Positions 11,927-38,974 are shown, counted from the first letter of the stretch. The stretch: 64,000 nucleotides of DNA from Candidatus Kaiserbacteria bacterium (GCA_028286585.1 JAQBRI010000009.1:28010-92009), one strand, 5' to 3'. Numbers and translations: made by a program. The notes: generated by a model not told the origin, from the sequence alone.

Positions 11927-13195
11927 ATGAACGACTACTCACACATTCAAAAACAAGACGAAGAGGTATTTGCATCACTTTTGGGCGAAGAAACACGCGA
12001 GCGAGAAGGTATCGAATTAATCCCTTCAGAAAATTACGTTTCAAAAGCAGTGCGCGAAGCCAACAGTTCGATTTTTACTAACAAATATTCCGAAGGCTAT
12101 CCGGGCAAACGCTATTACGGTGGGCAATTCTATACTGACATCGTCGAAAATCTTGCGATCGATCGTGCCAAGCAACTTTTTGGTGCACAATTTGTAAACG
12201 TACAACCGCACTCGGGAGCAAACGCAAACATTGCGATGTATTTTGCTTTGCTTGAACCAGGTGACACCATCTTGGGAATGGATCTTTCGCATGGCGGGCA
12301 CCTTACACATGGTCATCCTGTCACCTATCTCACCAAGATTTTTAAATTCATCCGCTACAAAATGAAGGACGTAGAAACGGGTGAAATTGATTATGACGAA
12401 ATGCGAGCAACTGCACTCGAACATAAACCAAAGATTATTCTTGCTGGATATTCTGCATATCCGCGCGAACTCGATTATGCAAAAATAGCAGCTATCGCAC
12501 ACGAAGTCGGAGCATACGCAGTGATGGATATGGCACACATTGCTGGGCTTATTGCCGGTGGTGTGATGAAAAATCCATTTGATTATGGGTTTGATGTCAT
12601 GACTACAACTACACACAAAACCTTGCGAGGACCTCGCGGCGGCATGATCCTTACTTACAACAATCCCGAGATTGCCAAAAAAATAGATAAATCAGTTTTT
12701 CCAGGTCTCCAGGGAGGTCCGCTTATGAATACAATCGCTGCAAAGGCAGTGTGTTTTGGCGAAGCGCTCAAGCCGTCGTTCAAAACATATGCTGCTCGCA
12801 TTCTCGAAAACGCAAAAGCAATGGAGACAGTTTTCAAAGCAAAAAATATTCGCATGCTGACTGGTGGAACAAGTAGTCATCTTATTCTCGCAGACGTTTT
12901 TGGATCACTTCAAGTCACCGGCAAAGAAGCAGAGAACTTGCTGGATTCTGTCGGTATTACGCTCAACAAAAATGCAATTGCTGATGATGTTCGCGGGCCA
13001 ATGGATCCTTCGGGAATCCGTTTTGGTACTCCGGCAATTACTACGCGCGGATTTGGCACAAAGGAATGCGCGCGAGTAGCAGAACTCATGATCGACACTC
13101 TCACAAACCGCGAAGACAAGACCAAACTCGAAGAAATACACAGCGAAATAAAATCTCTCTGCGAAGCATTCCCTATTCCCGATTCGTTCACATAA
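11927..13195 (+). CDS. glyA: Serine hydroxymethyltransferase
   Basis: SHMT hallmarks: GGHLTHGH, TTTTHKTLRGPRGGMIL (PLP-Lys region), 422 aa. Confidence 0.9.
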   Translation: MNDYSHIQKQDEEVFASLLGEETREREGIELIPSENYVSKAVREANSSIFTNKYSEGYPGKRYYGGQFYTDIVENLAIDRAKQLFGAQFVNVQPHSGANANIAMYFALLEPGDTILGMDLSHGGHLTHGHPVTYLTKIFKFIRYKMKDVETGEIDYDEMRATALEHKPKIILAGYSAYPRELDYAKIAAIAHEVGAYAVMDMAHIAGLIAGGVMKNPFDYGFDVMTTTTHKTLRGPRGGMILTYNNPEIAKKIDKSVFPGLQGGPLMNTIAAKAVCFGEALKPSFKTYAARILENAKAMETVFKAKNIRMLTGGTSSHLILADVFGSLQVTGKEAENLLDSVGITLNKNAIADDVRGPMDPSGIRFGTPAITTRGFGTKECARVAELMIDTLTNREDKTKLEEIHSEIKSLCEAFPIPDSFT

Positions 13196-13312
13196 CCTTG
13201 GTTTGATTTATTGCCTCAACTGCTACCTCTGTACGCATTCTAACGACCGTTACAATGCGTACAGATTGTCATTTCATATGCGTGGCGAAGTAATCAGTAT
13301 TCAGCTATACTA

Positions 13313-13954
13313 ATGAACATGTTTACTACCGTTCTGTCGCTACTTCAAATCCCACACACTTCCCTAGCACATATCGTAACACTCATCGGTTATCCAGGTA
13401 TATTTGCTGCTATTTTTGCCGAAACAGGAGTCTTTTTTGGTTTTTTCTTGCCAGGATCTAGTCTTTTGTTTACGGCAGGTCTTCTTGCTTCGAAAGGAGT
13501 ATTTAATATTTGGGTCCTTTTTACTGTTGCATCTGTTGCAGCAATTTTGGGAGACAACGCAGGATACTGGTTTGGTTCAACTGTCGGTCACCAGCTGTAT
13601 AACCGTGCAGACTCGCGTTTTTTCAAAAAGAAATATTTGCTTGAAGCACATGCTTTTTATCAAAAATATGGATTACAAACTATTGTGCTTGCCCGCTTCA
13701 TTCCTGTAATTCGTACGTTTGTTCCGATCGTGGCAGGTATCGCAGAAATGGATTACAAACGATTCTTCTTGTACAACGTATTTGGTGGTTTTTTGTGGGC
13801 TGGTGGAATGTGTGTAGCCGGATATTATTTGGGCAAACATGTCCCATGGGTATCCACCTACCTTACTCCGATCATTTTGGTGATCATATTTATATCGATA
13901 CTTCCAGTTCTTGTGCAGTTTTACAAACAGTCTCGGACAAAATCACATTCTTAA
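13313..13954 (+). CDS. DedA/SNARE-associated family membrane protein
   Basis: Multi-TM; VLARFIPVIRTFVPIVAGI matches the DedA signature region. Confidence 0.7.
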   Translation: MNMFTTVLSLLQIPHTSLAHIVTLIGYPGIFAAIFAETGVFFGFFLPGSSLLFTAGLLASKGVFNIWVLFTVASVAAILGDNAGYWFGSTVGHQLYNRADSRFFKKKYLLEAHAFYQKYGLQTIVLARFIPVIRTFVPIVAGIAEMDYKRFFLYNVFGGFLWAGGMCVAGYYLGKHVPWVSTYLTPIILVIIFISILPVLVQFYKQSRTKSHS

Positions 13955-14007
13955 AGATTTGGAATTTAAGTATCGAAGCTTTTTCGTAATGCACAAGAGA
14001 AAATTTG

Positions 14008-14817
14008 TTATTGCTCGAGAAGCGCCAGCCCTCCGTACAACCCCCCATCATCTTTGAGCTGTGAGTGTATGAGTCGCGGTATCGTTGGGAATTTATGCAT
14101 AAGTAGTTTTAAGTGTTCCGTTACACTCTCAACAGATATTCCAATTTCATTAAACATGGATCCACCCAAGACGATAGTGTCTGGAGACCACTCGAGTATC
14201 ATGTTGTGCACCCCAATCGCAGTAATGCGTGCAAGATCTTCCCATACTGGAGAATCTTTGCCCAGATCGCGCGGATGCATTCCATATTTTTTGTGAATAG
14301 CTGAGCCGGATACGAGTTCTTCAAATGTTTCAAGACTATCGCCATGCGAAAGATACTGACCGCCTATTTCAAATCCTTCAGTTGAGCGGTCGATATGTCC
14401 GTCAATAATTCGCACTCCATTTACTCCAGTCGAAATGGTAAGATACGCCATGATCGCACTTCCTACACCTGCTCCATATTTATTTTCACCAAGCCCAACC
14501 AGCGCCGTATCATTCTCAAGCGTGACCGTACACTCAAGCGCTTGCGCCAAATCATCTGCCAGCGGCTTACCGATCCATTCCATGAGATGCTCTGCTGTTG
14601 CAAGTGAGCGCTTATCATGAGAAAGCACACCAGGTACCCCCGCAACAAAGCGATCAATTGCTCCGCCTTCTGCAAGTTGTTTTGCCATTTGAACTATCAA
14701 TTCCAAACCCTGTTCATATTGCTGAGGTGTTTCAACATGCGTTGAACTGATCGATGTGTGCGCATTTGAAGCAACGCGCATTTTTGTTCCTCCAATATCA
14801 GCAAGGATTGCACGCAT
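14008..14817 (-). CDS. ROK/BadF-type sugar kinase (glucokinase-like)
   Basis: ILADIGGTKMRVA N-terminal ATPase phosphate-1 motif and GVPGV; actin-fold sugar kinase size (269 aa). Adjacent to PGI/PMI. Confidence 0.6.
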   Translation of the reverse strand: MRAILADIGGTKMRVASNAHTSISSTHVETPQQYEQGLELIVQMAKQLAEGGAIDRFVAGVPGVLSHDKRSLATAEHLMEWIGKPLADDLAQALECTVTLENDTALVGLGENKYGAGVGSAIMAYLTISTGVNGVRIIDGHIDRSTEGFEIGGQYLSHGDSLETFEELVSGSAIHKKYGMHPRDLGKDSPVWEDLARITAIGVHNMILEWSPDTIVLGGSMFNEIGISVESVTEHLKLLMHKFPTIPRLIHSQLKDDGGLYGGLALLEQ

Positions 14818-14818
14818 A

Positions 14819-15799
14819 TTATTCGGACATACGTTTTTTAAACTCAGCTATAAGCGGCGTTTGAGGGAATGGTACTCCATAGCCTGTCGCAAGCTCTCGC
14901 GCAACTGCATCCCCCAGTAATATCGTTTTAAACGCCTTACTAAAGCCGGTATCCGATAACTCTACCGTATACACCCCGATACCTTTTTCGATGAGCATCT
15001 GGCTTGCAACCTGCATACGCTTTTGTATGCGCGGATTGTCATTTGGGTCCGCAAAAATGACAACGCCCATGGAATCTGTGATTTTACTCGTACTTTCTGT
15101 AACATCAAATCCGGATAAATCATTGTGACAAAGCTCTGGGCAGACATCAATAAATGCCGGTACCTTTGTTGTTTCATTAAAATGTACTTTCCAAATATAA
15201 GAGAGCGGCGTGTTTACGTTCGAAGCCCAAATAAGTGGTATTTTGTTTTTGAGAAAAAGTGCAATCGTATTTACTGTGTCTTGATGAGGAAAAAGATCTT
15301 CACGTACACCGGCAAGCAAAATTTCTTGTTGCAATGCATCATCTTCTAGTATCAATGCCAACGCCCGCATTCCAAAACCAATCGCAAGACGAGGCTCAAG
15401 TCCGATTTCTGGAAGAATAACGAGCGGTATGTTATGAGTGCGAGCAAAATCAGCCAACTCGCCACCTGTCGTGATAGCGGCAAGCGAGCATCCGCGTACC
15501 AAGGCCTCAGCAGCTGCATCCAAAATTTCTTCGGTATTACCAGAATACGAACTCAAAATAACTAATGTATCCTTGGGATCATATATTCCTGAGTCATACA
15601 TATACACTGGGAGTCCATAATCACGATGAATGCTCAGTTCGGGTTGATTATCAAAATTTTTGACAAGCCATGCCGGCAAATGCGACCCTCCCATACCGCA
15701 AACAATTGTATGTGGTTTATGCTGCAAAAAATGGCTTCTTTCAACCTTTAACTCAGTTGTGAATTGAGATTGAAATTGTATGTGTAAATCTTCATGCAT
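14819..15799 (-). CDS. Bifunctional phosphoglucose/phosphomannose isomerase (SIS domain, archaeal/CPR type)
   Basis: SIS-domain profile (IVCGMGGSHLPA, SYSGNTEE) and about 326 aa typical of PGI/PMI family. Confidence 0.65.
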   Translation of the reverse strand: MHEDLHIQFQSQFTTELKVERSHFLQHKPHTIVCGMGGSHLPAWLVKNFDNQPELSIHRDYGLPVYMYDSGIYDPKDTLVILSSYSGNTEEILDAAAEALVRGCSLAAITTGGELADFARTHNIPLVILPEIGLEPRLAIGFGMRALALILEDDALQQEILLAGVREDLFPHQDTVNTIALFLKNKIPLIWASNVNTPLSYIWKVHFNETTKVPAFIDVCPELCHNDLSGFDVTESTSKITDSMGVVIFADPNDNPRIQKRMQVASQMLIEKGIGVYTVELSDTGFSKAFKTILLGDAVARELATGYGVPFPQTPLIAEFKKRMSE

Positions 15800-15843
15800 T
15801 TAATAATTGTACCATATTTTAGTATTTCAAAAACAGCGCCGTA

Positions 15844-17802
15844 TTATTTTTTTAAGTGCAGCATGCATTCCAAATATGCTTGTACTGTAAGTACATATGC
15901 CGCATGTGTCCACGCGAGCGGCGTTGCTCCTACCTGTTCGCCAGTGTAGGGATTTAACTGTTCAGACAGCACTCCCGAAGGCTGCGCGTGCAATACAACC
16001 CAATCAAAAATATCAGTAGCCTTTTTCATGTCTGCAATATTTTCTGCACTACGAATGATATATTCTGCATACCACAAAGTGGTGAGTACCCATGGATTTC
16101 CTGGAGCTGTGCTATCGATACGAAAATATTCATCATTCTCAAATCGTGCAACGCCTCCTGCAAGAATATTTTTTGTAAGTATTTTGATAGAAGTATTCCA
16201 CGCTCGAATCATGCGATCATCATGTACATCAAGTACTTCAAATTTCATAAGTCCATACACGCTCGAAATATCAACGGTACGATCGTATTCCATTTTTTCA
16301 CCAGTGTGAGTAATCATATTTATGAACACACCCTTTTCCTCATCCCACAAGTGTTCAAGAATCGCCGCTCGTATTTCATGTGCGACCGTCAGATACTGTA
16401 CTTCCAAATCCGATTTACCCAATATTTTTGCCATTTCGCTTGCGGCAACGAGAGCGCCATACACACTTGCGCTCGTGTATGTACTAGTTCCTCGTTTGCG
16501 CTCCCATAAATCATATGAAGGAAATGGCAGGTGTGTTCTCCCATCACGATAATGGATCATAAATTCAGCGGGCTTTTTTACCAGCACATCAAACATTGCT
16601 TCCAAAAACTCCAAATCACGACTCTGTTGAAAGTGATTGTAGAGCGCGACGACAACAATCGCCGTTTCGTCCTCTTGTATCGGAAGCTGCGGATGTCCGT
16701 CTTTGATCCATGGGTGCCACGAAGAGCCAAACGATCCGTCTGCCCAAAACTTATGCAAAAAATATCCATCTGCCGATATTACGCGTGCACAAAATTTAAA
16801 GAATCGTTTTGCTGCACTGGTGTCACCTACAATATCCAGCATGGTTGCCGCATATGCTGCGTCACGCGGCCATACATATGCATATGTATCGTATCCCCAC
16901 TGCAGCATGTCGGAATCAAGCGAGGCGATGATTCCGCCCTGACCATCGAGATGGGCGCGAACATACATTAATGATTTGGTATAGAGTTGAGATTGTACAG
17001 AAGACAATTTTGAAAGATCGGTCGTGTATGTCTTGATCCATGCGCGCCAATATTCGCGCGTACTTAACACAATGTGTGAAGCAGTTTTTTGTCGCACACT
17101 ATGATCAAGCGCACGTGCCTCATGAATTGAGTGTGCTGCAAGAAGCCAGTAATGACATACTCGTGATTGCCCTACAGCATATTGACCATAAAATCCTATT
17201 ACAGAGTCCGCGGGTCCATGTTCAATAGCGTTTTGTGACAGCATGCCATCATCACAATCTCGGTGTGTACCTTCTTGATTGTTATATCCTGCGCGCCCTG
17301 TCGCATAATCCTGAAATTGTTCGCCGTCCAAATTACCTGACATTAAAAAAGCTCGTTTGTCTTTGTAGTGCACGATTGAATGCGATTCAGGATCAAAAAA
17401 GGCAGTATCTCCGCCATGAGCTTTGTATATTTCAAACTGCTGCCCAAAATACAATTTGATTTCGCGGATACGGTCTGCACCGTTCGTGACTCGTACGCGC
17501 CGTACAAACACCGGTTGTTCATTATAAATAATATCGGTAAATAATAGTTCTATTTGTAGGTTATTATTTCGGGCAATGATACTTGAAGCAAGTGCATTAT
17601 TTTCGCAGGTGACGACGACGCTCCAATCAGGGTCTGATATCCAACTCATCACTCCTTCAACCCATACACCAACGCGATGCAAATAATGTCCGCGTACATG
17701 ATCCTCTTGTCCCACATGCGGATAATAAATATCCCGCACCTGGCCGACACTATCAAGTGCGACGGCAAGTTCGCCATTGGAAAGTATCATAGAGCGAGAC
17801 AT
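15844..17802 (-). CDS. Glycoside hydrolase family 15 (glucoamylase/glucodextranase-like) with N-terminal beta-domain
   Basis: GYDTYAYVWPRDAAYAATML and other (alpha/alpha)6-barrel GH15 motifs; 652 aa matches bacterial GH15 with N-domain. Confidence 0.75.
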   Translation of the reverse strand: MSRSMILSNGELAVALDSVGQVRDIYYPHVGQEDHVRGHYLHRVGVWVEGVMSWISDPDWSVVVTCENNALASSIIARNNNLQIELLFTDIIYNEQPVFVRRVRVTNGADRIREIKLYFGQQFEIYKAHGGDTAFFDPESHSIVHYKDKRAFLMSGNLDGEQFQDYATGRAGYNNQEGTHRDCDDGMLSQNAIEHGPADSVIGFYGQYAVGQSRVCHYWLLAAHSIHEARALDHSVRQKTASHIVLSTREYWRAWIKTYTTDLSKLSSVQSQLYTKSLMYVRAHLDGQGGIIASLDSDMLQWGYDTYAYVWPRDAAYAATMLDIVGDTSAAKRFFKFCARVISADGYFLHKFWADGSFGSSWHPWIKDGHPQLPIQEDETAIVVVALYNHFQQSRDLEFLEAMFDVLVKKPAEFMIHYRDGRTHLPFPSYDLWERKRGTSTYTSASVYGALVAASEMAKILGKSDLEVQYLTVAHEIRAAILEHLWDEEKGVFINMITHTGEKMEYDRTVDISSVYGLMKFEVLDVHDDRMIRAWNTSIKILTKNILAGGVARFENDEYFRIDSTAPGNPWVLTTLWYAEYIIRSAENIADMKKATDIFDWVVLHAQPSGVLSEQLNPYTGEQVGATPLAWTHAAYVLTVQAYLECMLHLKK

Positions 17803-17846
17803 AATATGATTATTGTAACATCATAAAATTACGATATAGTGTTCGT

Positions 17847-18335
17847 ATGAATACGCCTCCTTCGCATTACACAGATGATCATCGCATTACGAGCGAAGAC
17901 TTGTTTAACGCTAGCTCATACGAGGAATTAGCACAAATTGCACTGGGCGAACTCAAGTCTCTTGGAAATGCAGTCTCAATTGTCTGCGGACCAATAACGA
18001 CAGGCGGCCGCGGATCGATCAAGGACAACGTTGCGGTATTTGGAGCAACCATCAAAAAATTATCCGAAACGAATATATTGTTTAACCAGGTGCCCTACGA
18101 GGGCTCAATCGCACGCCTACGGCAAATATGGCACAACGAAGGCAACACCGGATACTGTATGCCAATACTTGATGTGTTTTATGCCCAACTCTTTGAGAGC
18201 GGCAATATTACCAAAGCATATTTTATTCCAGGCTGGGAATCATCATTTGGTGCACGTTGGGAACATAACGAAATGAAATTACATGGAGTAGAAATCGTGT
18301 ACCTTACCGACGAATGGATCGATAGTATTATATAA
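17847..18335 (+). CDS. Hypothetical protein (162 aa)
   Basis: ORF between divergent GH15 and GH57 genes; no recognised motifs. Confidence 0.35.
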   Translation: MNTPPSHYTDDHRITSEDLFNASSYEELAQIALGELKSLGNAVSIVCGPITTGGRGSIKDNVAVFGATIKKLSETNILFNQVPYEGSIARLRQIWHNEGNTGYCMPILDVFYAQLFESGNITKAYFIPGWESSFGARWEHNEMKLHGVEIVYLTDEWIDSII

Positions 18336-18342
18336 AAACTAT

Positions 18343-19536
18343 TTATTTTGCCCGCTCAACACGAAGCCTGAGATCCGAGAGTGCATTCATGTACGCAATG
18401 TATGCGTCATATGGTGATTCATAGGGAGAAAAATATGCGTGCACATCGCCGTCATTCGCATATTTGGTACACATATAGTAAAAGTGATCCGACGTCTGCA
18501 TTCGGCGCCAATCTTCGAGGATGCGACCGTCGTTTGCCAAGAGTACACCATCTTCAAGTGCATACACCGCATCAATTGCCGCACGCTGTAGCGGATTTCC
18601 TGTCCACGCAGACAAATCGCGGTCGGTGTCTGCCCACGTCACGATGTCTGGCATATCGATTTCATCTTTTGTATCAAAACTGCGCGAAACTTCGGATGGA
18701 GTCATAAATGTAATTCCTGGATTTTTGGCAACCTCTTGCGGCAGTGCCTCCAAAAAGTGAAAGATGCCAGTGTCCTCCCACTGGTGCTCACCAAACGTCT
18801 CATAGTCCATAAACAAATTTACAGTGTCTCCCGGCGCTTCACCAAGCCAAGCACCAAATTTTTCACTCGTGAGCGGCCATTCAGCCCAGTCTTGTGATGA
18901 AAAACGAAATGCGACATCATCAGAAAGTTTATAATTTTTAAGCAGTAGCTTTATCCGATTTGCTCCGACCGGTTTATATACATAATTTGGACTGCGCCAT
19001 CCCAAAACTGGATCCCATCCTTCTGCAAGAATAGTTTCATACCCGTTCTTGTCGGCCCAATGTGCCAAATCATTGCGATATGACAGTTCAGTGTTACGAA
19101 ATGTTCGTGGCCATACGCCAAAAAGTCGGCGTACAAGCTCGCGGTGCTTTGCTACCTGACGCTCAAACTCGGGCTGTGAATAAAAGAAGGAGAGCGAATG
19201 GTAATATGTCTCGCCAAGTACTTCGACTTGTCCTGTATCAATGACGCGCTTAAACAAATCAAGCGCTTCAGGGACATATTGCTCCAGCTGCTCGAGCGCA
19301 ATGCCAGAAAAAGAAAATGACACGTGCATTTCCGGATGCCGCTGCAAGAGCTTGAGCAATAACGACGTCGCAGGAATGTATGATTTGCGGGCAACTTTTT
19401 CGACAATACGTCGATTGTTCAAATCGGTCTCACTTCGATCATTAAAATACTCAGTATCGTGCCCAATATCAAATACTCGGTACTTTTTTACACGATAGGG
19501 TTGGTGAACTTGAAAATAAAAACAAAGTGCCTTCAT
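18343..19536 (-). CDS. Glycoside hydrolase family 57 protein (alpha-glucan processing)
   Basis: N-terminal ALCFYFQVHQPYR (FHQP motif hallmark of GH57), about 397 aa. Confidence 0.7.
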   Translation of the reverse strand: MKALCFYFQVHQPYRVKKYRVFDIGHDTEYFNDRSETDLNNRRIVEKVARKSYIPATSLLLKLLQRHPEMHVSFSFSGIALEQLEQYVPEALDLFKRVIDTGQVEVLGETYYHSLSFFYSQPEFERQVAKHRELVRRLFGVWPRTFRNTELSYRNDLAHWADKNGYETILAEGWDPVLGWRSPNYVYKPVGANRIKLLLKNYKLSDDVAFRFSSQDWAEWPLTSEKFGAWLGEAPGDTVNLFMDYETFGEHQWEDTGIFHFLEALPQEVAKNPGITFMTPSEVSRSFDTKDEIDMPDIVTWADTDRDLSAWTGNPLQRAAIDAVYALEDGVLLANDGRILEDWRRMQTSDHFYYMCTKYANDGDVHAYFSPYESPYDAYIAYMNALSDLRLRVERAK

Positions 19537-19542
19537 GTCCGC

Positions 19543-20802
19543 TTATTGTACACCACTCTCACTTACTTCACGTATGATTCTATCCACATTTTGTGCCGCA
19601 CGATCCCATGTAATGCTTAATGCTTCGTTTTGTGCATAATCACTCAGCGTAGCGTGGAGCATCGGGTGCTCAATTACTGCCAAAATCTTGTTTGCCATCT
19701 CATCCGTGTCCCAAAAGTCTACTTTAAGTGCATGAAAGACGACTTCCGAGACGCCAGACTGCTTGGAAATAAGAACAGGGGTCCCCAATCGCATTGCCTC
19801 AAGCGGAGTGATTCCAAATGGCTCGGAAACAGATGGCATAACAAATAAATCGGCGACAGCGTATGCCATAGTCCGATCATCCCCTTGCAAAAAACCTGTA
19901 AACAGAACATTTTGCCCAATACCGAGCGCCGCAGACATTTCCATAACAGACCGATCCATATCACCCGAGCCAGAAATAACAAAAATAACCTTTTTGTTTT
20001 GCTGCAGTACTCGGGCAGCAGCCTTAAGAAAGTAGTCTGGGCCTTTTTGAAGCGTAATGCGTCCCAAAAACAGCACGATCGAATAGCCCGACGCCTTGAG
20101 TGCGCGCAAGCTTGCAATACCAGGTAGTGCCTTTGGCATTGTTGTTTCGTCGATTCCGTTATGTACAACCACTATTTTGTTTGGATCGATTCCGTAGTAT
20201 TTGACGATAATATCTTTGGTCAGTTGTGATACCGCTATTACCCTATCTGCTGTTTGCATACCGAGTTTCTCAAGTTCAAATACAACCGGGTTAACACCAT
20301 CAATACCACCACACCTGTCTACTTCTGTTGCATGCACGTGCGCAATGAGTGGACGCCCGGTAATACGTTTTGCCTCGATTCCTGCACCAAACGAAAGCCA
20401 ATCATGTGCATATATGACATCACATTCCTCAGATTTTGCGATTTCTCCCGCCTGCAATGAATAGCGCAATACTTGTCCCAACAAATCCTCACCATAGATA
20501 TTTGCATCAACGACAGTGCCGTTACTCAATGTTACCTTCCCCGATCGCGAGGTGTACGGAGTAATGGTCGAAGATATACCGATAGTCCTGATACTTTTGC
20601 CGCTTATTTCTTCTACTGAGTATTCGACACTGTCGGCAAAAAGTATTTTTGCAAAAGCAGATTCAACAGGCAGTTTTTTTGGCATGACAAACGTAACATC
20701 CATTCCTCGCGATGTAAGAGCCCGAGTCAGTCCCAAGCATGCGACGCCTAATCCTCCGCTATTAAACGGAGGAAATTCCCAGCCAAACATTAGTATGCGC
20801 AT
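19543..20802 (-). CDS. Glycosyltransferase (GT-B, glycogen/alpha-glucan synthase-like)
   Basis: Start at MRILMFGWEFPPFNSGGLGVACLGLTRAL, the KIAxVxxEyxPxxKTGGLGDV-type N-terminal motif of glycogen synthase-like GT-B enzymes. The ORF track's extra 13 codons are likely non-coding. Confidence 0.65.
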   Translation of the reverse strand: MRILMFGWEFPPFNSGGLGVACLGLTRALTSRGMDVTFVMPKKLPVESAFAKILFADSVEYSVEEISGKSIRTIGISSTITPYTSRSGKVTLSNGTVVDANIYGEDLLGQVLRYSLQAGEIAKSEECDVIYAHDWLSFGAGIEAKRITGRPLIAHVHATEVDRCGGIDGVNPVVFELEKLGMQTADRVIAVSQLTKDIIVKYYGIDPNKIVVVHNGIDETTMPKALPGIASLRALKASGYSIVLFLGRITLQKGPDYFLKAAARVLQQNKKVIFVISGSGDMDRSVMEMSAALGIGQNVLFTGFLQGDDRTMAYAVADLFVMPSVSEPFGITPLEAMRLGTPVLISKQSGVSEVVFHALKVDFWDTDEMANKILAVIEHPMLHATLSDYAQNEALSITWDRAAQNVDRIIREVSESGVQ

Positions 20803-20888
20803 AGTAGTAGTGATAGGTAATCCCCAACCCGATTTTACCATGTATCTGCATCGCGCTGTCTATCCTATCCACTCTTTTCAGACTATTA

Positions 20889-21389
20889 TTATCGAGTGAC
20901 GCAAATCGGCGTCGGACTAGCCGAAACAGCAGTCTCACTCGCCGCTCCAGGCGCACAAACAGTAACTCGACCATTTGTGTCTACAGAAACCGTATAGCCC
21001 GTGCTTGGTGTAGTAGGCGCCGACGGATCGACTGGCAGCGTTGGAATGTATGTTGGTACCAAACAGTTGGTAGCAAGATCGGTATGTCCTGAAACTGTTG
21101 TTCCACCCGCATCTATGACAGATGCTGTGGCTCCAAGCGCTGGACATCCTCCAGTTGAAGCAAAAATACCTTTATTATCTGCTATTCGCTGCCCAATCGC
21201 GTTCAAAATTGCATTTACACTACTGGTTCTGTCTGTATTACGAGCCTGTGCAAATTGTCGCGCCGGATTAATCGCAATAATTACTATTGTTGCCAATATC
21301 GCAATGATGCCAATAACAACTAAAATTTCTATTAAAGTAAAACCACTCTGCGCTTGCGCGCTTTTAAACCGTTTTGTAACGGACCCCAT
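20889..21389 (-). CDS. Type IV pilin (prepilin with class-III signal; candidate major pilin)
   Basis: KRFKSAQAQSGFTLIEILVVIGIIAILATIVI is a prepilin leader with G/FTLIE cleavage-methylation site; Cys pair near C-terminus. Confidence 0.8.
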   Translation of the reverse strand: MGSVTKRFKSAQAQSGFTLIEILVVIGIIAILATIVIIAINPARQFAQARNTDRTSSVNAILNAIGQRIADNKGIFASTGGCPALGATASVIDAGGTTVSGHTDLATNCLVPTYIPTLPVDPSAPTTPSTGYTVSVDTNGRVTVCAPGAASETAVSASPTPICVTR

Positions 21390-21473
21390 ATTTTTATATC
21401 GTTACTAATAATATCTATAGTGTAGCAGTCGCTTCAAAATATTTGTGAGGTGACTTACACATGTGTTAATAAC

Positions 21474-21515
21474 TTATAAACAAAAGCCCACTAGAGCGAG
21501 CTTTCGCCATAGTGG
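21474..21515 (-). terminator. Rho-independent terminator downstream of the 21527-22015 gene (minus strand)
   Basis: CCCACTA...TAGTGGG stem with inner GCGA/TCGC pairing; on the minus strand followed by TTTTGTTTAT. Confidence 0.5.
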
Positions 21516-21526
21516 GTAAATCAAAT

Positions 21527-22015
21527 CTATAAAATGTGAGTCCATAATTCCTCGGATTCGTCGTTACTTACAACACGCTTGAGCAGCGTCGGTTTTTTAC
21601 CGTCGAGACATGCACGAAACACATCATCTCCCGATTTGAACCGTATCTCGGCCGGATCCAAATTAACCTTCTCGACATAGTGCAAACTGAGGCAAATTTT
21701 CCTTCCATCATCGACCGCAAGCACAACGCCCGTACCGTTGGCCTCGACTGAAACTTTAAATCGAGTGGCGACGTACGAAAGCAGCGCAAAACCCATCGAG
21801 TAATCATTCGTTTTTCGCAAACCCAGAATCGTCATTCCCATGTTTGCAATCGTGCGCGATGGAAAGTCGGTCAGCGGACAAAAAGGAGCGACTTCATCCT
21901 TTTCGATAACAGCCTGATCAACTATTCTGCATACGTACACGCCGCCACTATAGTACGTATAATTGGTGCAATCCTTGCATGCAGATACAAGTCCGACAAT
22001 CTTTGGCGTCGACAT
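21527..22015 (-). CDS. Cys-rich cytoplasmic hypothetical protein embedded in pilus locus
   Basis: 162 aa, N-terminal CKDC..C.....C-like cysteine cluster (SACKDCTNYTYYSGGVYVC), no TM; own terminator. Confidence 0.4.
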   Translation of the reverse strand: MSTPKIVGLVSACKDCTNYTYYSGGVYVCRIVDQAVIEKDEVAPFCPLTDFPSRTIANMGMTILGLRKTNDYSMGFALLSYVATRFKVSVEANGTGVVLAVDDGRKICLSLHYVEKVNLDPAEIRFKSGDDVFRACLDGKKPTLLKRVVSNDESEELWTHIL

Positions 22016-22126
22016 AATGGTATCTCTCTGTTGGCCCTACCAGACACGAATGTGGGCTAGTAACACATGTCCTACCGAGACAGTACACAACCAGTACCAA
22101 ATAGTCAACGATTATATGTCTTTGGT

Positions 22127-22525
22127 TTAAAATGCCGCAGTGTTCAGAATTTGCATATGCAGGGTAAGCGTCACGTAAGATTTTCTATGACTAATTGCAT
22201 TTCCCTCTTTTGCCATAGTGATAATAATAATCTTGTTACCCTCGTGAACAATTGAAACGATGGTACAGGCGTGATTACTGTTTAGAATTACATTTTGATT
22301 ATGTACTGTATATGTTGATGGGTCTGCTGCTGTTGCGATGATTCTTAGTGCAATATCTATGCATCCTTGTGATTCCATTTGTGCATCACGATACTGTTCA
22401 CTTGTCAGTACATCGGCCCTGGCAAACCAGCCTGAAAATCCCACGGTAACCATAAGCGTAAGCAATATCGCACTGATAATTAGAACTGATATGAGTGCAA
22501 TAAAACCTCTATTTTCTTTTTTCAT
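22127..22525 (-). CDS. Pilus minor pilin/PilX-like protein (N-terminal hydrophobic anchor)
   Basis: MKKENRGFIALISVLIISAILLTLMV: PilX/GspK-like N-terminus lacking the canonical Glu5; position within the pilin operon. Confidence 0.5.
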   Translation of the reverse strand: MKKENRGFIALISVLIISAILLTLMVTVGFSGWFARADVLTSEQYRDAQMESQGCIDIALRIIATAADPSTYTVHNQNVILNSNHACTIVSIVHEGNKIIIITMAKEGNAISHRKSYVTLTLHMQILNTAAF

Positions 22526-22526
22526 A

Positions 22527-23009
22527 TTATTGATTCAATATGGAATGAAGATAAAATAATCGAGATACCATATGTCCATCACTAGTGGTCGCACTGGCGA
22601 CAAACTCTCCATCGAGGACGTCGAACGATTCATCTGAATTTGAAATTTTTGCATGCGTAAATGTAAGATCTTGCACAGAGATAGTGTCTGCATTAAGAAT
22701 GTGTGGATCATTACCGCCATCGATGATCAGATTTCCACCGGTACTATATATATTTGTTTCCGTTCCGGCGTCATCAACAACATTCAATGAAGCGCCCTGT
22801 GTCTGGGGAGCCGAAATAATTGATGATGATTGTACGATATAGGTTATTTTTGAAACAATAAAATCGCCTTCTTCCACTAAAAGAGCGATACTCTGATTGC
22901 GTACTTGTGATTCAAATAGTGAATAGAGCGCAACAATTACACCTCCCATAAGTATCGAATAAAGTGCTAAATACATAACAACTTCTATCAAGGTAAATCC
23001 CCGCCTCAT
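22527..23009 (-). CDS. Prepilin-type N-terminal cleavage/methylation domain protein (minor pilin)
   Basis: MRRGFTLIEVVMYLALYSILMGGVIV: class-III signal peptide with G/FTLIE. Confidence 0.75.
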   Translation of the reverse strand: MRRGFTLIEVVMYLALYSILMGGVIVALYSLFESQVRNQSIALLVEEGDFIVSKITYIVQSSSIISAPQTQGASLNVVDDAGTETNIYSTGGNLIIDGGNDPHILNADTISVQDLTFTHAKISNSDESFDVLDGEFVASATTSDGHMVSRLFYLHSILNQ

Positions 23010-24526
23010 AATCCGGCATGTATATCGCTGATAAATCCCCCACTTGCACTCGATCCGACATAGAGCGTGTTTTGTTCACAATCAATAGCGCGACCGTTTC
23101 CAGGTAAAGCGATGGTAGCAACACGATGTGGAGCGATTTGTAGTAAATCACTATCCACTTGTAACGATTGTCCCGTAGTGGTAAGTAAAAAAGCGTATTG
23201 TGGACGAACGATCATACCGATAATACTGCTGCTTGCTGTGGCAGTTGATATAACCATTGGCGTGCTGCGATCAATGGTGTTAAGAGTGTACAAATCCGGT
23301 GCTCCTGCAGCAAAAGTGAGTCCAAGGTATGTGGTAGTTCCAATTACGTTCACGCTGCTGCCGTTTCCCCAACCCTTGTTGTCATACACATTGTACTGAC
23401 TCACAAGCGTAGGATTAGTTGGATCATTAACATCAAGAATCAACAATTCGTGCGTCGAACTGTCTGTTGCTATATAGGCATAGCCGCGGCGTACATCAAT
23501 GTCACTTACTCCGGCACCGACAACATATCCACCCACCCATCTTGGATGCAGCGGATCGTGCACGTCTATAATATTAAACTCGGGACCGCCTGCAGATTTT
23601 GTAAGACCGAGATACACATAGCCACCAATCAAAATAATAGTTTTTCCAACTGCCTGGCCGCCGCTACCGTTGAGAAATGGAGTGCTACTGGTAGGTATTG
23701 TGAAATTGGCTACCACTGTAGGATTTACGGGATTTGTAATTGCTAGTACCTGCAACTGGGCGCAGCTGGCTGACGTATGACATGTTTTAAAGTTTGCCGC
23801 GTGACCATTCGCTGCAAACACATACGAACCATTTGAGGCGATATTTTCGAGTCCATCAATACTGGAAGAATTTGTGTCAATTCCGCCTTTGTAAATCCAA
23901 TTATTTGGATCTTGCACGTCAACGACAAAGAATGAATCGTTAAGCTTGTTGCTAGTCGTTCCTACCGCGATAGACATGATGCCTCGATAGACATCCACAC
24001 TGGTTACTGGATTCGATGTTGAATACGTATGTCCCGCCGGTTGCGTTGGGGGCAGCAGGTCACCAATACTTATTTTATGATTATTAATGCTTGCATGTGC
24101 CCAGTTTCCGCCAAGCGCTCCACAAGTATCATATGACAGAGCATTCATGTAGTCGGTAAGGGCAGATACCATGGTAACTGTCTGCAAAGCCCCACCACGA
24201 TCACTCCACGACACCTTTGTGGTCGCCAAGCGCACTGCGTATGGATCATACGATGAATCTCCAATTGTAAGAGTAGAGGTAAATACTCCATCGGAGGATG
24301 TTGCGAGATTAGCAAGAGATCTTTCATCTGCATGCGCAGCAACTTGTGCATTTTCAAGCATTGTTTCAGCGTGCACAATAGCTTGGTTGTGCATAGTACC
24401 TGATAACAGTATCGATTGTCCTTCGTACGATATCAAAGCCATTGAACCTACCGTGCATGAAATTATTGCAAGCGCTATGACTATCTCGATTGTGGAAAAT
24501 GCCCTCGAATAGACTAGCGACTCCAT
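23006..24526 (-). CDS. Large pilin-like protein with LVIVD-type beta-propeller repeats (PilY1/tip-adhesin analog candidate)
   Basis: N-terminal FSTIEIVIALAIIS pseudopilin-like hydrophobic segment; repeated motifs YVYLG...FNIIDVHDPLHPRWVGGY, LLILDVNDPTNPTLVSQY, FFVVDVQDPNNW resemble LVIVD repeats. Confidence 0.5.
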   Translation of the reverse strand: MESLVYSRAFSTIEIVIALAIISCTVGSMALISYEGQSILLSGTMHNQAIVHAETMLENAQVAAHADERSLANLATSSDGVFTSTLTIGDSSYDPYAVRLATTKVSWSDRGGALQTVTMVSALTDYMNALSYDTCGALGGNWAHASINNHKISIGDLLPPTQPAGHTYSTSNPVTSVDVYRGIMSIAVGTTSNKLNDSFFVVDVQDPNNWIYKGGIDTNSSSIDGLENIASNGSYVFAANGHAANFKTCHTSASCAQLQVLAITNPVNPTVVANFTIPTSSTPFLNGSGGQAVGKTIILIGGYVYLGLTKSAGGPEFNIIDVHDPLHPRWVGGYVVGAGVSDIDVRRGYAYIATDSSTHELLILDVNDPTNPTLVSQYNVYDNKGWGNGSSVNVIGTTTYLGLTFAAGAPDLYTLNTIDRSTPMVISTATASSSIIGMIVRPQYAFLLTTTGQSLQVDSDLLQIAPHRVATIALPGNGRAIDCEQNTLYVGSSASGGFISDIHAGL

Positions 24527-24966
24527 AGTATTCGTCCAATGCTGCTAATTGTAATAGTAGCTGTCTTTCCAAATGAATCAGTAAGTAAAAAATTGCCCGA
24601 TGTTGCGACTGATCCGGAAAGAGAGGCGAATACCACTTCTGACAAACCTGTATATGTGGTGTGTTCACTCTTTTCAAAAGAAACCGAATATGATCCATCA
24701 CTATCTGCATATGAATTACCTTGAAAAACTACAATTTGATTTTGTGTGACGGCTACGCCATGAGCAGGAGAAATGTCGCAAGCACCGCTACAGACTCCCT
24801 GCATTGAAAGAGCACGCGCATGTTCGAAAAGAGTCACAAGCCTTTCCCTATCAGAGCGCAATTCTACACTTCGATATTCTCCAATGGAGGCTGCTATTGT
24901 TAGCCCGCCAATGATGAGTAACAAGGCTATTACAATAATAATTTCAATGATAGAAAAACCCCGCAT
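24514..24966 (-). CDS. Prepilin-type N-terminal cleavage/methylation domain protein (minor pilin)
   Basis: MRGFSIIEIIIVIALLLIIGGLTIA class-III signal. Confidence 0.75.
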   Translation of the reverse strand: MRGFSIIEIIIVIALLLIIGGLTIAASIGEYRSVELRSDRERLVTLFEHARALSMQGVCSGACDISPAHGVAVTQNQIVVFQGNSYADSDGSYSVSFEKSEHTTYTGLSEVVFASLSGSVATSGNFLLTDSFGKTATITISSIGRILWSR

Positions 24967-24967
24967 A

Positions 24968-26035
24968 TTAATGATTGCTAATGCTTTGTGTCAGCTGATA
25001 AATGGGAGTAATTATCGAAAGTGCAATAAACTCGACAATACTTCCCATCACAAGCATGAGGAGCGGCTCGATAAGCGTAGTAAGATTTTTGGTCATCTCT
25101 TTTACTTCTTGTTCATAATTTTCTGATATGTAACCAAAACTTTCTTGGAGTCGCCCTGTCATTTCACCAGAATGGATAATATGTACAAACATTGATGGGA
25201 ACAACCGAGGATGATGCGAAAGAGCATCTGCAACAGTGCTGCCCTCTTCTACACCAACTGCGATGAATGAAATAACATGCCTATACTGTGCAGATCCTGT
25301 CGTCGTACTAATAAGTTTTAAAACAGCTGCAGCTTGTATGCCGCTTAATAATAATGCACTGCCAGTGCGCGCAATTAGAGATAATTCGTAGCTTTGTAAT
25401 AGACCACCAATTATTGGTACGCGAAAAAGTATCCGTTCAAACAAATGTCTAAAAAATGGGACTCTTATGCACATTCCAAATACAACTAAACAGACAACTG
25501 CACCAAAAATTGCAATGTACCAATCGTGGATCAAAAAATCTGATACTCCTATTAAAATGCGGGTGGAAAGCGGCAATACGGTGTGAACACTTTTAAATAT
25601 CGGTGTAAGTTTTGGGAAAAGATAGACTGCCAAAAATAGGGATATGCACATCGTTGCGAGAATAATGATGATTGGATAGATAAGTGCGGCAATTACAGTA
25701 TTACGTAATTCTGCACGTTTTTTAAGCTCATCGGACACATATATAAGCGACTGATGCAGCGAACCTGACTCCTCTCCTATCTTCACCAGATTGATCGTCA
25801 GTGGAATAAATACTTTTGGAAACTTTTGCAAAGCCTGGGAAAATCGTATGCCATGCTGCACTTCGTGGAGGAGTGTTGTAATAATATATTTTGTATTTTT
25901 TGAGCTCTCCGAAAAACCTATCATCTTTAAAACTTCTCCTAATGGAATTCCAGCACGTAACATCATTGCAATACGTTTAAAAAGTACAACTTGCTGCTTG
26001 TTAGACAAACGCAGCATGTATGGCTTATCATTCAT
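24968..26035 (-). CDS. pilC: Type IV pilus assembly platform protein PilC / GspF family
   Basis: 355 aa, three TM segments with two cytoplasmic GspF-type domains (LLxxGxPLxEAL-like: LRAGIPLGEVLK; SGIQAAAVLK). Confidence 0.8.
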   Translation of the reverse strand: MNDKPYMLRLSNKQQVVLFKRIAMMLRAGIPLGEVLKMIGFSESSKNTKYIITTLLHEVQHGIRFSQALQKFPKVFIPLTINLVKIGEESGSLHQSLIYVSDELKKRAELRNTVIAALIYPIIIILATMCISLFLAVYLFPKLTPIFKSVHTVLPLSTRILIGVSDFLIHDWYIAIFGAVVCLVVFGMCIRVPFFRHLFERILFRVPIIGGLLQSYELSLIARTGSALLLSGIQAAAVLKLISTTTGSAQYRHVISFIAVGVEEGSTVADALSHHPRLFPSMFVHIIHSGEMTGRLQESFGYISENYEQEVKEMTKNLTTLIEPLLMLVMGSIVEFIALSIITPIYQLTQSISNH

Positions 26036-27359
26036 GCGTAAGTCGAAGCGTTTCTTCGAGCGTGGTAATTCCCTGTCGTGCTTTGAGGAGTGCGTCAGTA
26101 ATCATAATTTCCATTCCTTGCTTACATGCTTGGATACGTATTTCATCAGCGCTCGCGCGCATAACAATGCGCTCCCGAATTACTTCATCGATCTGCAATA
26201 ATTCATATACGCCAATGCGCCCTCTGTATCCAGTTCCAATACATTCTCCACAGCCACGTCCCCGATAAAACTGGGGATTGGTGTGCAATAACGAAAGTGG
26301 AGTAAGTTTTGAGACTTGTAATAATTCTGAATCCGTCAATGCTATTTTTTCACGGCAACCAATACAAATTTTTCGTACCAGTCGCTGTCCTATGACGAGG
26401 GTAACTGTAGACGCAATCAAATATGGCTCTACGTCCATATCAAGAAGACGCACGATGGTTGCCGCCGCATCGTTCGTATGAATACTCGACAAGACAAGGT
26501 GCCCAGTGAGCGCAGTATTTACAGCAAGCCGTGCGGTCTCTGTATCACGCACTTCTCCAACCATTACAATATCCGGATCTTGCCGCACGACTGCACGGAG
26601 TCCAGTTCCAAAAGTGAAGCCAATGGCGGGATTTACTTGGATTTGCCGAACTCCATGTATTGAATATTCTATCGGATCTTCAAGTGTAATAATTGATACA
26701 TCAGGCGTATTCAGTTGTGAAATCAAGGTGTACAACGTTGTCGTTTTGCCCGAACCTGTAGGACCTGTCGCAAGTATCATGCCATGTGTACGAGCGAGTG
26801 CGCGCTGTATTATTTGCTGCTGCAGATTACTAAAACCCAATTCGGGAAGACCATTAGCATTATTCATATTAGTGAGTAATCGCAATACAGCATTTTCGCC
26901 ACAATAGGTGGGTGTAATCGATACTCGCACGTCTACAATTATCGGTAGGGTTGTAGATTGTTTTATGTGAATAATTTCAGAGCGAAATCGCCCATCATGC
27001 GGCATGTAATGCTCATCGATGCGCAAACCTGCCATAACCTTTATGCGCGATATCACTTCGGAGTGTAATCCGATTGGTATGGTGTAGACATCTTGCAGTA
27101 TTCCATCGATACGCATGCGCACCATGACTATTCCATCACGCGGATCAATATGTACGTCGGACACCTTTGCAAAATATCCGTGAGATATCAATGCATCAAT
27201 AATTTTGATTGCTGAATTACCTATAATTTTTGTTATGTCCACGGGTCCGCTCTCTCGCGTAGGAATTTGCGTCGTATCAAAACAAAAAACACCCTCGGTA
27301 GGTGTTTCAGACGTGCTTTTTGCACGCGTAACAAACGCATGGAGACCCCGAATATCCAT
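26028..27359 (-). CDS. pilB: Type IV pilus assembly ATPase PilB / GspE family
   Basis: Walker A GPTGSGKTT, Asp box, His box, and tetracysteine motif CIGCRE...CGECIGTGYRGR characteristic of GspE/PilB; overlaps pilC by 8 bp. Confidence 0.9.
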   Translation of the reverse strand: MDIRGLHAFVTRAKSTSETPTEGVFCFDTTQIPTRESGPVDITKIIGNSAIKIIDALISHGYFAKVSDVHIDPRDGIVMVRMRIDGILQDVYTIPIGLHSEVISRIKVMAGLRIDEHYMPHDGRFRSEIIHIKQSTTLPIIVDVRVSITPTYCGENAVLRLLTNMNNANGLPELGFSNLQQQIIQRALARTHGMILATGPTGSGKTTTLYTLISQLNTPDVSIITLEDPIEYSIHGVRQIQVNPAIGFTFGTGLRAVVRQDPDIVMVGEVRDTETARLAVNTALTGHLVLSSIHTNDAAATIVRLLDMDVEPYLIASTVTLVIGQRLVRKICIGCREKIALTDSELLQVSKLTPLSLLHTNPQFYRGRGCGECIGTGYRGRIGVYELLQIDEVIRERIVMRASADEIRIQACKQGMEIMITDALLKARQGITTLEETLRLTHE

Positions 27360-38154: not shown

Positions 38155-38974
38155 TCACCAACAAAATGAGTATAACACCTCCAATCAATACAAATTGCGT
38201 AGAAGATTGGGGAGAATATATTATTTTTACAACACTGTTTCCCGCGACATCAGTGGCGCGTACTCGTAACTCCGACATTCGTGTCTGATCAAGGAGCACG
38301 TAGTAACGGTCTGCGCGCACATACTCGTTTGAACCTTCTTGCACTTCATAGTACGCAATACCGCTACCACTATCTTGTGCAAAAAACGTCAGGAAATACT
38401 GATTGTTAAATAATGAAGGATCACGTCCTACTTCCACCGTAACAAACTCAGGTGGTGTCGTATCACTGAGTACGGACGATGTTGCGGTCGTGCTACTTTC
38501 AATACTAATACTTTGTGTAAATGGTTGTACTGCTACAGGTGTTCCTGAGCCATTGTCACTATATGCAACAACTTTGTTTGCAGAAAGTGTAATGTTTCCA
38601 GACGCCGCAACATGAGCAGTAAACGAAAAAAGAATTTTATCTTGATGAGCGGCAATACCTGTCTGCACACCTCCCAAAAAGTCGATAGTATGCGTATTAA
38701 CAACAAAATGCGGTGTGTCCGGCCACAGTGTCATAACAGACCCTCCGGTAGTTACAGAGTCAACTGATACATTCTGCGGAATCGAAAGAGAGCCTTCTAT
38801 TGCATTGATTGCATCATTATCGGTCGCAATATGAACCTCCGCTGTAAATTTCTGTCCGATGGCAGGAACTGATGGATTGAGCATTACCGTGAGATGCGCA
38901 GCATACGCGCTTGTTGGCAGCCGAAAGCTTAAGAATAAAAGAGCGAGAAATAGAGAGGTTAGATATTTTTTCAT
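38105..38974 (-). CDS. Membrane-anchored surface protein with cohesin-like domain (C-terminal TM anchor)
   Basis: Signal peptide. LTVMLNPSVPAIGQKFTAEVHIATDNDAINAIEGSLSIPQNVSVDSV...ILFSFTAHVAASGNITLSANKVVA is cohesin-like. C-terminal FVLIGGVILILLVIVFIWLQYRRKKY stop-transfer anchor. Confidence 0.45.
   Translation of the reverse strand: MKKYLTSLFLALLFLSFRLPTSAYAAHLTVMLNPSVPAIGQKFTAEVHIATDNDAINAIEGSLSIPQNVSVDSVTTGGSVMTLWPDTPHFVVNTHTIDFLGGVQTGIAAHQDKILFSFTAHVAASGNITLSANKVVAYSDNGSGTPVAVQPFTQSISIESSTTATSSVLSDTTPPEFVTVEVGRDPSLFNNQYFLTFFAQDSGSGIAYYEVQEGSNEYVRADRYYVLLDQTRMSELRVRATDVAGNSVVKIIYSPQSSTQFVLIGGVILILLVIVFIWLQYRRKKYATL

Follow-up and report, generated by a model that had tools for sequence, protein, structure and literature searches.

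We find that a 64-kb stretch of DNA from a Candidatus Kaiserbacteria metagenome-assembled genome (hereafter the window, by which we mean the whole stretch analyzed) contains a genuine compact type IV pilus gene cluster, which is one copy of a cassette common to many related species. The block occupies positions 20889-27359, with all of its genes on the minus strand, and encodes a PilB/GspE-type assembly ATPase, a PilC/GspF-type platform protein, five pilin-like proteins and an orphan protein of 162 residues (Table 1). We consider it likely that the block represents a minimal type IV filament cassette found throughout the Patescibacteria, in which a machine resembling that of the Com pilus builds a filament with an adhesive tip.

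A seven-gene cassette shared by Patescibacteria

In order of transcription, the genes of the block encode the ATPase (443 residues), the platform protein (355), a pilin of 150 residues, a propeller-bearing pilin (506), a pilin of 160 residues, a pilin that lacks Glu5 (132), the orphan (162) and the major pilin (166). The six genes from the ATPase to the 132-residue pilin overlap or abut, with intergenic distances of -8 (the 8-nt overlap of the ATPase and platform genes), +1, -13, -4 and +1 nt, and all seven cassette genes are intact. The initial annotation of this DNA had listed these genes and read them as a type IV pilus locus; indeed, each gene was found at its stated position, all of them on the minus strand, and Pfam matches and motifs support the reading. 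It had overlooked the unrelated open reading frame (ORF) for the 162-residue, non-pilin protein at 21527-22015, between the genes for the 132-residue pilin and the major pilin.

The same arrangement recurs in many species. A scan of one genome per species with a 13-sequence alignment of the propeller pilin family returned 45 loci, and approximately 35 of the 45 share one gene order: short ATPase, platform protein, pilin of ~150 residues, LVIVD pilin of ~500 residues, pilin of ~160 residues, Glu5-less pilin and major pilin. The genomes that carry the cassette are labelled Kaiser-, Adler-, Nomura-, Lloyd-, Doudna- and Taylorbacteria, other Paceibacterota, and "Patescibacteria group", and the precomputed gene calls of three loci (L001, L003 and L005) confirm the order. 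Identities across the ~35 species are 26-57%, rising to 88% in L001, the closest relative, and the shortened architecture and the order of genes are kept throughout, which points to long-term purifying selection. Matches outside the Candidate Phyla Radiation (CPR), in Heimdallarchaeota, WOR-3, Anaerolineae and Spirochaetia, were to the propeller only, with no cassette.

A full cassette, with an LVIVD pilin of 728 residues, is also present on an 18-kb contig labelled Bacillota bacterium (L030, JBLNCF010000002.1). Either the contig has been misbinned or mislabelled, or the cassette also occurs outside the Patescibacteria.

The ATPase of the cassette has the motifs of an assembly ATPase, namely Walker A (residue 199), the Asp box (224), Walker B (261) and the His box (285), together with a pair of CxxC motifs (332 and 370) that make up the tetracysteine motif. 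Against NCBIfam profiles it scored 455.6 bits for GspE (cutoff 630.25), 437.6 bits for PilB (TIGR02538, cutoff 675.65) and 228.3 bits for ComGA (cutoff 300), such that it reaches the curated cutoff of none of the three. The alignments begin only at profile position 109 of 486 for GspE and 182 of 564 for PilB, and a Pfam scan gave no match to the MshEN/GSPII_E_N (N1) domain in this protein. Among solved structures, the ATPase matches Thermus PilF and Geobacter PilB best (339-320 bits), then GspE (~309 bits), and PilT far less well (~105 bits). As judged from these alignments, the ATPase is a member of the PilB/GspE clade without the N-terminal MshEN/N1 domain. The platform protein is similarly short: its match to GspF starts at profile position 58 and scores 272.1 bits (cutoff 424), its match to ComGB spans that profile from end to end (1-331 of 332) and scores 131.8 bits (cutoff 240), and no curated NCBIfam cutoff is reached among GspF, PilC and ComGB.

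The N1 domain of GspE docks on GspL, and that of PilB docks on PilM. N1 normally serves this docking, and the joint lack of N1 and of PilM/N/O in the cassette is internally consistent; the Com pilus machinery shows the same pattern. No PilD, PilT or PilM/N/O was found in the 64-kb window by ORF inspection and by Pfam and motif scans, in agreement, for PilD and PilT, with the initial annotation.

In three annotated relatives (L001, L003 and L005), there is likewise no PilM/N/O or PilT beside the cassette. In the ~35 species with the shared gene order, the cassette has no PilD, PilT or PilM/N/O as neighbours; the sole exception is a Parcubacteria locus, L035, in which a neighbouring, separate set lies 1-7 kb downstream of the cassette (12570-18741) and encodes PilM, an unannotated protein of 221 residues, PilO, a PilB of 577 residues with an MshEN domain, a response regulator, and a PilT-like ATPase of 354 residues. 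The ATPase in the window is closer to the short cassette copy of L035 (E 1e-124) than to its long PilB (E 3e-89). By this comparison, the short and long ATPases are old paralogues, and the cassette is an old separate system, able to coexist with a canonical pilus. We therefore regard the cassette as probably one of two systems, the other being a canonical type IV pilus with PilT.

The pilin set and the propeller pilin

Four of the five pilins carry a class III signal of the form (G or A)-F-x-x-x-E, and in alignments of orthologues each of the five families keeps its own conserved N-terminal signature. The conserved Phe1 and Glu5, whose absence on alignment the initial annotation had named as grounds for rejecting its reading, are therefore kept in these four, while the fifth lacks Glu5 in every orthologue, as is the case for cap pilins of the GspK/PilX type. 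No further pilin gene was detected in the 64-kb window by a regex scan of all ORFs.

The 166-residue pilin is the most conserved protein of the cassette, with 95% identity to its counterpart in L001 (compared to 88% for the ATPase) and 46-69% identity elsewhere. Its N-terminus, G-FTLIEILVVIGIIAILA.IVIIAINPARQFA, is nearly invariant across ~30 species, it has four Cys residues (82, 109, 145 and 163), and its gene is always the last in the cassette. We infer that it is the major subunit from its size, position, conservation and own transcription unit. Major pilins are hypervariable in many pathogens, unlike the conserved pilin found here.

The gene for the 150-residue pilin always directly follows the platform gene in cassette loci. 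This pilin is below the N_methyl cutoff, and its orthologues in ~30 loci retain G-F(T/S)LIE (consensus G-FTLIE). The family of the 160-residue pilin has the conserved signature G-FTLIE..xYxAL, and its members match GspH, ComGF, ComGE and GspJ, all weakly. In another assembly of this organism (L053 2578-3000, the same DNA as window positions 22527-23009), the automatic gene call starts this protein at an internal Met, giving 140 residues and losing the MRRG-FTLIE leader; public annotation may therefore overlook the protein as a prepilin.

The 132-residue pilin and all of its ~30 orthologues lack Glu5, with the consensus RG-F(I/V)AL(I/M)S in its place, and the family has two invariant Cys residues. 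The match to GspK is short (17.8 bits against a cutoff of 130, covering only profile positions 4-73 of 307) and is seen in 2 of 20 family members; the Pfam scan gave no N_methyl match in this protein or in the 506-residue protein. The gene is always the last of the minor pilin set in cassette loci. A last minor pilin without Glu5 is expected for cap pilins of the GspK type, and we presume from its sequence that the 132-residue pilin caps the tip complex. In five related loci, the Glu5-less pilin is 677-1022 residues long, compared to ~130 residues here, and carries VWA and SpaA_2 domains in four of the five (SpaA_2 only in L014). Based on these domain matches, the cap pilin is a second site at which adhesin modules are grafted.

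The largest pilin of the set, of 506 residues, is identical to the Candidatus Kaiserbacteria protein with locus tag JWO50_713, which is annotated as a hypothetical protein and is encoded on a contig of 94,973 nt. An AlphaFold2 model computed with a 30-sequence alignment (pLDDT 87.8, pTM 0.83) starts with a 59-residue helix (residues 8-66) and a sheet of four strands (74-124). Seven blades of four strands each follow (141-505), the last of them completed by the first strand, and the model thus bears out the beta-propeller that had been proposed for this protein. According to the model, the protein is a modular pilin, in which a pilin module is fused to a canonical seven-bladed LVIVD propeller. 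It has what defines a modular type IV pilin (PMC8179133): the signal A-FSTIE, the helix at 8-66, the sheet at 74-124 and an additional module, the propeller. Membership in the LVIVD family (PF08309/IPR013211; PMC10210494) is indicated by a score above the gathering cutoff and by repeats that model as a beta-propeller. The family signal is G-FSTLEILIA, with Glu5 invariant.

Homologues of the propeller pilin are numerous. A word-indexed search returned ~70 homologues of ~500 residues, and a profile search of 1.84 billion cluster representatives returned 3,124 matches at E <= 1e-30. The best 150 of these 3,124 matches all have E <= 1e-100, and most of the 150 are 470-550 residues long and cover the full profile, including the pilin N-terminus. 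The architecture IPR012902 followed by n copies of IPR013211 (LVIVD) is already in the dataset of a survey of modular pilins, in which the motif is described as "of unknown function" (PMC8179133). In the literature searched, we found no functional account of this cassette or of an LVIVD pilin. We also considered a relationship of the propeller to PilY1/PilC and rejected it: there is no Pfam match to Neisseria_PilC (IPR008707), PilY1 is not among the top structural matches, and the protein is itself a pilin.

Table 1. Features of the pilus block, of its neighbourhood and of related loci (window coordinates unless a locus is named; Pfam cutoffs are 21.2 bits for N_methyl and 20.2 bits for the LVIVD repeat)
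Feature	Position	Strand	Evidence or remark
Short PilB/GspE-type assembly ATPase, 443 aa	26028..27359	-	Pfam T2SSE E 4e-112, residues 50-439
Short PilC/GspF-type platform protein, 355 aa	24968..26035	-	Pfam T2SSF E 3e-46, two stretches
Minor pilin 1, 150 aa, signal MRG-FSIIE (cleavage after MRG)	24514..24966	-	Weak GspH N-terminal match, E 3e-6
Modular minor pilin, 506 aa, signal ...SRA-FSTIE	23006..24526	-	LVIVD repeat 37 bits vs 20.2
Pilin module of the 506-aa protein, residues 1-125	24152-24526	-	AlphaFold model
Seven-bladed LVIVD beta-propeller of the 506-aa protein, residues 141-505	23012-24106	-	AlphaFold model
Minor pilin 3, 160 aa, signal MRRG-FTLIE	22527..23009	-	N_methyl 23.4 bits
Glu5-less minor pilin, 132 aa, signal MKKENRG-FIALIS	22127..22525	-	Weak GspK N-terminal match, E 0.0019
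Orphan protein, 162 aa, no pilin signal	21527..22015	-	No Pfam or NCBIfam match
Terminator-like hairpin, CCCACUA...UAGUGGG then CUUUUGUUU (U-tract)	21478..21516	-	After orphan, before major pilin gene
Candidate promoter-like site, TTGAAG-18 nt-TATTAT, upstream of major pilin gene	21408..21437	-	Consensus scan, weak
Major pilin, 166 aa, 16-residue leader ...AQSG-FTLIE, mature 150 aa	20889..21389	-	N_methyl 30.9 bits; IV_pilin_GFxxxE 30.9 vs cutoff 16.3
Cluster of GT5/GT4 glucan synthase, GH57, GH15 glucoamylase-like protein, PGI/SIS and ROK kinase	15844-20841, 14008-15799	-	Adjoins cassette downstream
Long Glu5-less cap pilins	L014 5054-7597; L015 10861-13365; L016 12216-15251; L026 7037-10105; L041 2865-4898		

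Proposed function and alternative explanations

The cassette has the components common to the type IV filament superfamily, namely a secretion ATPase with all four boxes, a platform protein with a duplicated T2SSF domain, and subunits with class III signals. In the mechanism that we propose, a prepilin peptidase encoded elsewhere in the genome would cut the leaders after the Gly or Ala at position -1, and the four minor pilins would form a priming complex that ends up at the tip of the filament, where the Glu5-less pilin would sit uppermost and the propeller would be exposed. The ATPase and the platform protein would then polymerize the major pilin below this complex. Without PilM/N/O and without a docking domain on its ATPase, the system would work like the minimal Com pilus machinery of Gram-positive bacteria, and such a minimal machine would suit a cell that has no outer membrane. 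In the CPR, which lack PilQ and hence, by inference, an outer membrane, type IV pili are widespread and enriched, PilD included (PMC6744442).

By analogy with the thin T4P-2 pilus and the PilX2 protein of the saccharibacterium TM7x (Nanosynbacter lyticus), the most likely job of the cassette is adhesion to a host cell or surface through its tip modules. VWA domains and SpaA-like prealbumin-fold domains are classic adhesin modules. An adhesive tip is the function best supported because the propeller is always on the second minor pilin, because relatives carry VWA and SpaA-like modules, because modular pilins are regarded as adhesins displayed at the filament tip (PMC8179133), and because TM7x requires PilX2, a minor pilin with a propeller, to bind its host (PMC11623550).

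The resemblance to T4P-2, as drawn from its published description, takes in several features. Like the cassette, T4P-2 is a Patescibacteria type IV pilus without a retraction ATPase of its own, with a small major pilin and several minor pilins; like the 506-residue protein, PilX2 has a seven-bladed propeller at its C-terminus, and it is dispensable for filament extrusion; and T4P-2 exists alongside another pilus that has PilT (PMC11623550), an arrangement that L035 suggests for the cassette too. The two differ in that the PilX2 propeller is of the RCC1 type and has no predicted PilD signal, whereas that of the cassette is of the LVIVD type and follows a conserved G-FSTLE signal, and in that T4P-2 has its own PilM2/N2/O2 and its pilins in a separate locus (PMC11623550), whereas the cassette has no PilM/N/O and is a single locus. 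Two further systems are comparable. The modular pilins PilB (vWA) and PilC (lectin) of Streptococcus sanguinis likewise combine a pilin with a bulky module and are predicted tip adhesins (PMC8179133), and the relatives of our cassette carry vWA on another tip pilin. Similarly, PilY1/PilC of type IVa pili is a beta-propeller located at the tip with four core minor pilins, and is implicated in adhesion (PMC11623550, PMC8179133). By the genes in the window, the cassette does not fit the type IVa kind, with no PilB equivalog with MshEN (which the canonical PilB of L035 does have) and no PilM/N/O or PilT.

CPR type IV pili, a propeller-bearing minor pilin (PilX2 of TM7x) and LVIVD modular pilins have been published already. 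The general picture is unchanged, since type IV pili and modular pilins are documented in the group, as is a host-binding pilin with a propeller. What is new here is that the full conserved cassette is defined, that a model of the seven-bladed propeller is given together with its fixed place in the cassette, and that a second module slot is recognized on the cap pilin. To our knowledge, the ways in which ultrasmall CPR bacteria recognize and hold their hosts are largely unknown outside a few cultivated Saccharibacteria, and most of the radiation, including Kaiserbacteria, is uncultured. A compact seven-gene cassette with a propeller on a tip pilin, common to many Paceibacteria-type lineages, provides a concrete candidate adhesin, the LVIVD propeller. 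The vWA-bearing cap pilin of some relatives is a further candidate, both being testable for binding to hosts or glycans, and the cassette itself is a simple genomic marker for comparisons of host range across lineages.

Several points weigh against an adhesive filament built in this manner. First, the initial annotation had called the locus complete, which overstates what was found: the essential prepilin peptidase is missing from the window and from the surroundings of related loci, PilM/N/O are absent, and both the ATPase and the platform protein are N-terminally shortened and below curated cutoffs. For the peptidase, a crude scan for the GxGDxK motif alone found none in the window, in 52 loci or within 10 kb on either side of about 45 related loci, and the ~7 kb beyond the left end of the window hold ribosomal and other genes and no PilD; that this genome has PilD is assumed from CPR-wide surveys. 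The absence of PilM/N/O is drawn from the Pfam annotation of three loci and from homology scans. Second, most orthologues of the 506-residue protein have Gly at -1, whereas this protein and 4 of the other 29 homologues in the alignment have Ala there; cleavage after Ala in this leader is plausible. Third, the structural matches of the propeller are generic propellers only, such that no ligand can be inferred from them. Fourth, assignments of the minor pilins to GspH/I/J/K or ComGD-GG come from short N-terminal NCBIfam matches, all below curated cutoffs. The label "PilX-like" and the other class names given to the minor pilins in the initial annotation are thus tentative, as they follow from the N-terminal helices and the gene order only. 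Lastly, the adhesive role is one that we infer from genes and models.

The main rival to the adhesive filament is a pseudopilus for competence, in which the Com-like machine would capture environmental DNA and a minor pilin, possibly the one with the propeller, would bind it; we judge this improbable. The cassette has the parts of the Gram-positive Com system (ComGA-ComGG plus ComC): the ATPase lacks N1, the platform protein is short, one major pilin is joined by four minor ones, the peptidase would be encoded elsewhere, and PilM/N/O, PilT and a secretin are missing. The ComGB profile is also spanned from end to end. Moreover, CPR type IV pili have been linked with ComEC-dependent DNA uptake (PMC6744442; PMC5220378). 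Under this reading, the DNA would feed an organism that cannot make its own nucleotides, CPR bacteria being dependent on scavenged ones. However, the similarity to Com lies in composition and domain lengths, whereas ComGA, ComGB and ComGC (23.2 bits, cutoff 75) all remain below their cutoffs: the ATPase is far nearer to GspE and PilB (455 and 437 bits) than to ComGA (228 bits), and the platform protein is nearer to GspF (272 bits) than to ComGB (132 bits). The cassette also differs from Com in that its major pilin is encoded last (third in Com) and one of its minor pilins bears a propeller. No comEA, comEC or dprA was found in the window or beside the three annotated related cassettes. Finally, the propeller matches YncE no better than it matches dozens of WD40 proteins, and the modules on cap pilins of relatives are VWA and SpaA-like domains, which suit adhesion to proteins or cells and not the binding of DNA.

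A pseudopilus like that of type II secretion, which would push proteins through the cell wall without any external pilus, is unlikely. In its favor, the best NCBIfam matches are GspE, GspF, GspH and GspK, and the type II set GspE-F-G-H-I-J-K likewise combines an ATPase and a platform protein with four minor pseudopilins, ending in GspK, which has no Glu5. Every Gsp match, including those to GspE and GspF, is nevertheless below its curated cutoff, the solved PilF and PilB structures match the ATPase slightly better than GspE does, and the Glu5-less pilin, at 132 residues and without the GspK alpha-domain, is unlike GspK. Neither the window nor the related loci were found to have a secretin (GspD in type II nomenclature), GspC, GspL or GspM, and the ATPase has no N1 domain with which to bind GspL. 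CPR bacteria are also without PilQ and so, presumably, without an outer membrane (PMC6744442), and a tip pilin with a bulky propeller or VWA domain suits a displayed adhesin better than a piston. Still less probable, to the point that we give it little weight, is a pilus locus in decay or no longer functional, from which PilD, PilT and PilM/N/O have been lost: the peptidase, retraction ATPase and alignment proteins are indeed not in the window, the ATPase and platform protein are shortened and a foreign orphan gene is inserted in the block, but all seven genes and the catalytic motifs of the ATPase are intact, the shortened architecture is kept across the species described above, which points to purifying selection, and the major pilin is 95% identical to that of the closest relative.

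Beyond the adhesive filament itself, we raise one more tentative idea, namely that the cassette forms a class of its own among type IV filaments, restricted to the Patescibacteria and not yet delineated, with swappable adhesin modules at its tip. Such a class, which for the present is a possibility and not our expectation, would be characterized by an N1-less paralogue of PilB, a short platform protein, the lack of PilM/N/O, and a dedicated role as a host-binding filament. Its tip might, again speculatively, offer two slots for modules, one on the second minor pilin, which is always occupied by an LVIVD propeller, and one on the Glu5-less cap, where our cassette has no module but some lineages have vWA and/or SpaA-like domains. 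If this were true, variation in the tip modules would set host range.

Transcription units and neighbouring genes

The 162-residue ORF is flanked by gaps of 111 and 137 nt, and the protein has a conserved N-terminal CxxC...C...C motif (Cys 13, 16, 29 and 46). Three homologues are known, namely the protein itself and those in L001 (56% identity) and on the P0076 contig (47%), and the gene is absent from the cassette in all other loci; by its distribution, the orphan is a lineage-specific insertion in the cassette. An AlphaFold model from a two-sequence alignment had a pLDDT of 36 and was unusable.

The hairpin that follows the orphan gene has a minimum free energy of -19 kcal/mol and a z-score of -4.0, and none of 200 shuffled sequences folds as well. 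This terminator-like structure, placed before the major pilin gene, suggests that the major pilin gene is a separate transcription unit. The initial annotation had described a single co-directional block; the genes do all lie on the minus strand, but as judged from the hairpin the block probably consists of two transcription units. Promoter-like sites, including the candidate upstream of the major pilin gene, are not enriched in the region (16 found versus 22 expected from shuffles), and no terminator was found after the major pilin gene.

The pilus block is bordered upstream by a gene for an FAD-linked oxidase and downstream by the alpha-glucan cluster (GT5/GT4, GH57 and GH15). This cluster also adjoins the cassette in L001 and L003, which are Kaiserbacteria-like contigs, and not in L005, and the adjacency reads as shared ancestry with no functional link. 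We considered whether the downstream glycosyltransferase (19543-20841) glycosylates pilin, and rejected this, as the gene is part of the alpha-glucan cluster (with GH57, GH15, PGI and ROK) and is absent beside the L005 cassette.

Elsewhere in the window, a giant ORF of 5,941 residues (38993-56818, minus strand) begins with an N-terminal hydrophobic segment and continues with Gly/Ala/Thr-rich repeats that extend over thousands of residues and contain the motif Y(V/A)GGLVGxNxGxI. This repeat ORF accounts for a stretch with a GC content of 0.55-0.58 and a GC skew of about -0.3. The two genes downstream of it (38105-38974 and 36619-38154, minus strand) encode membrane-anchored proteins with DUF7743 and Big_13 Ig-like domains, and, to judge by these domains and repeats, the three genes probably form a cluster for a giant surface or adhesion protein.

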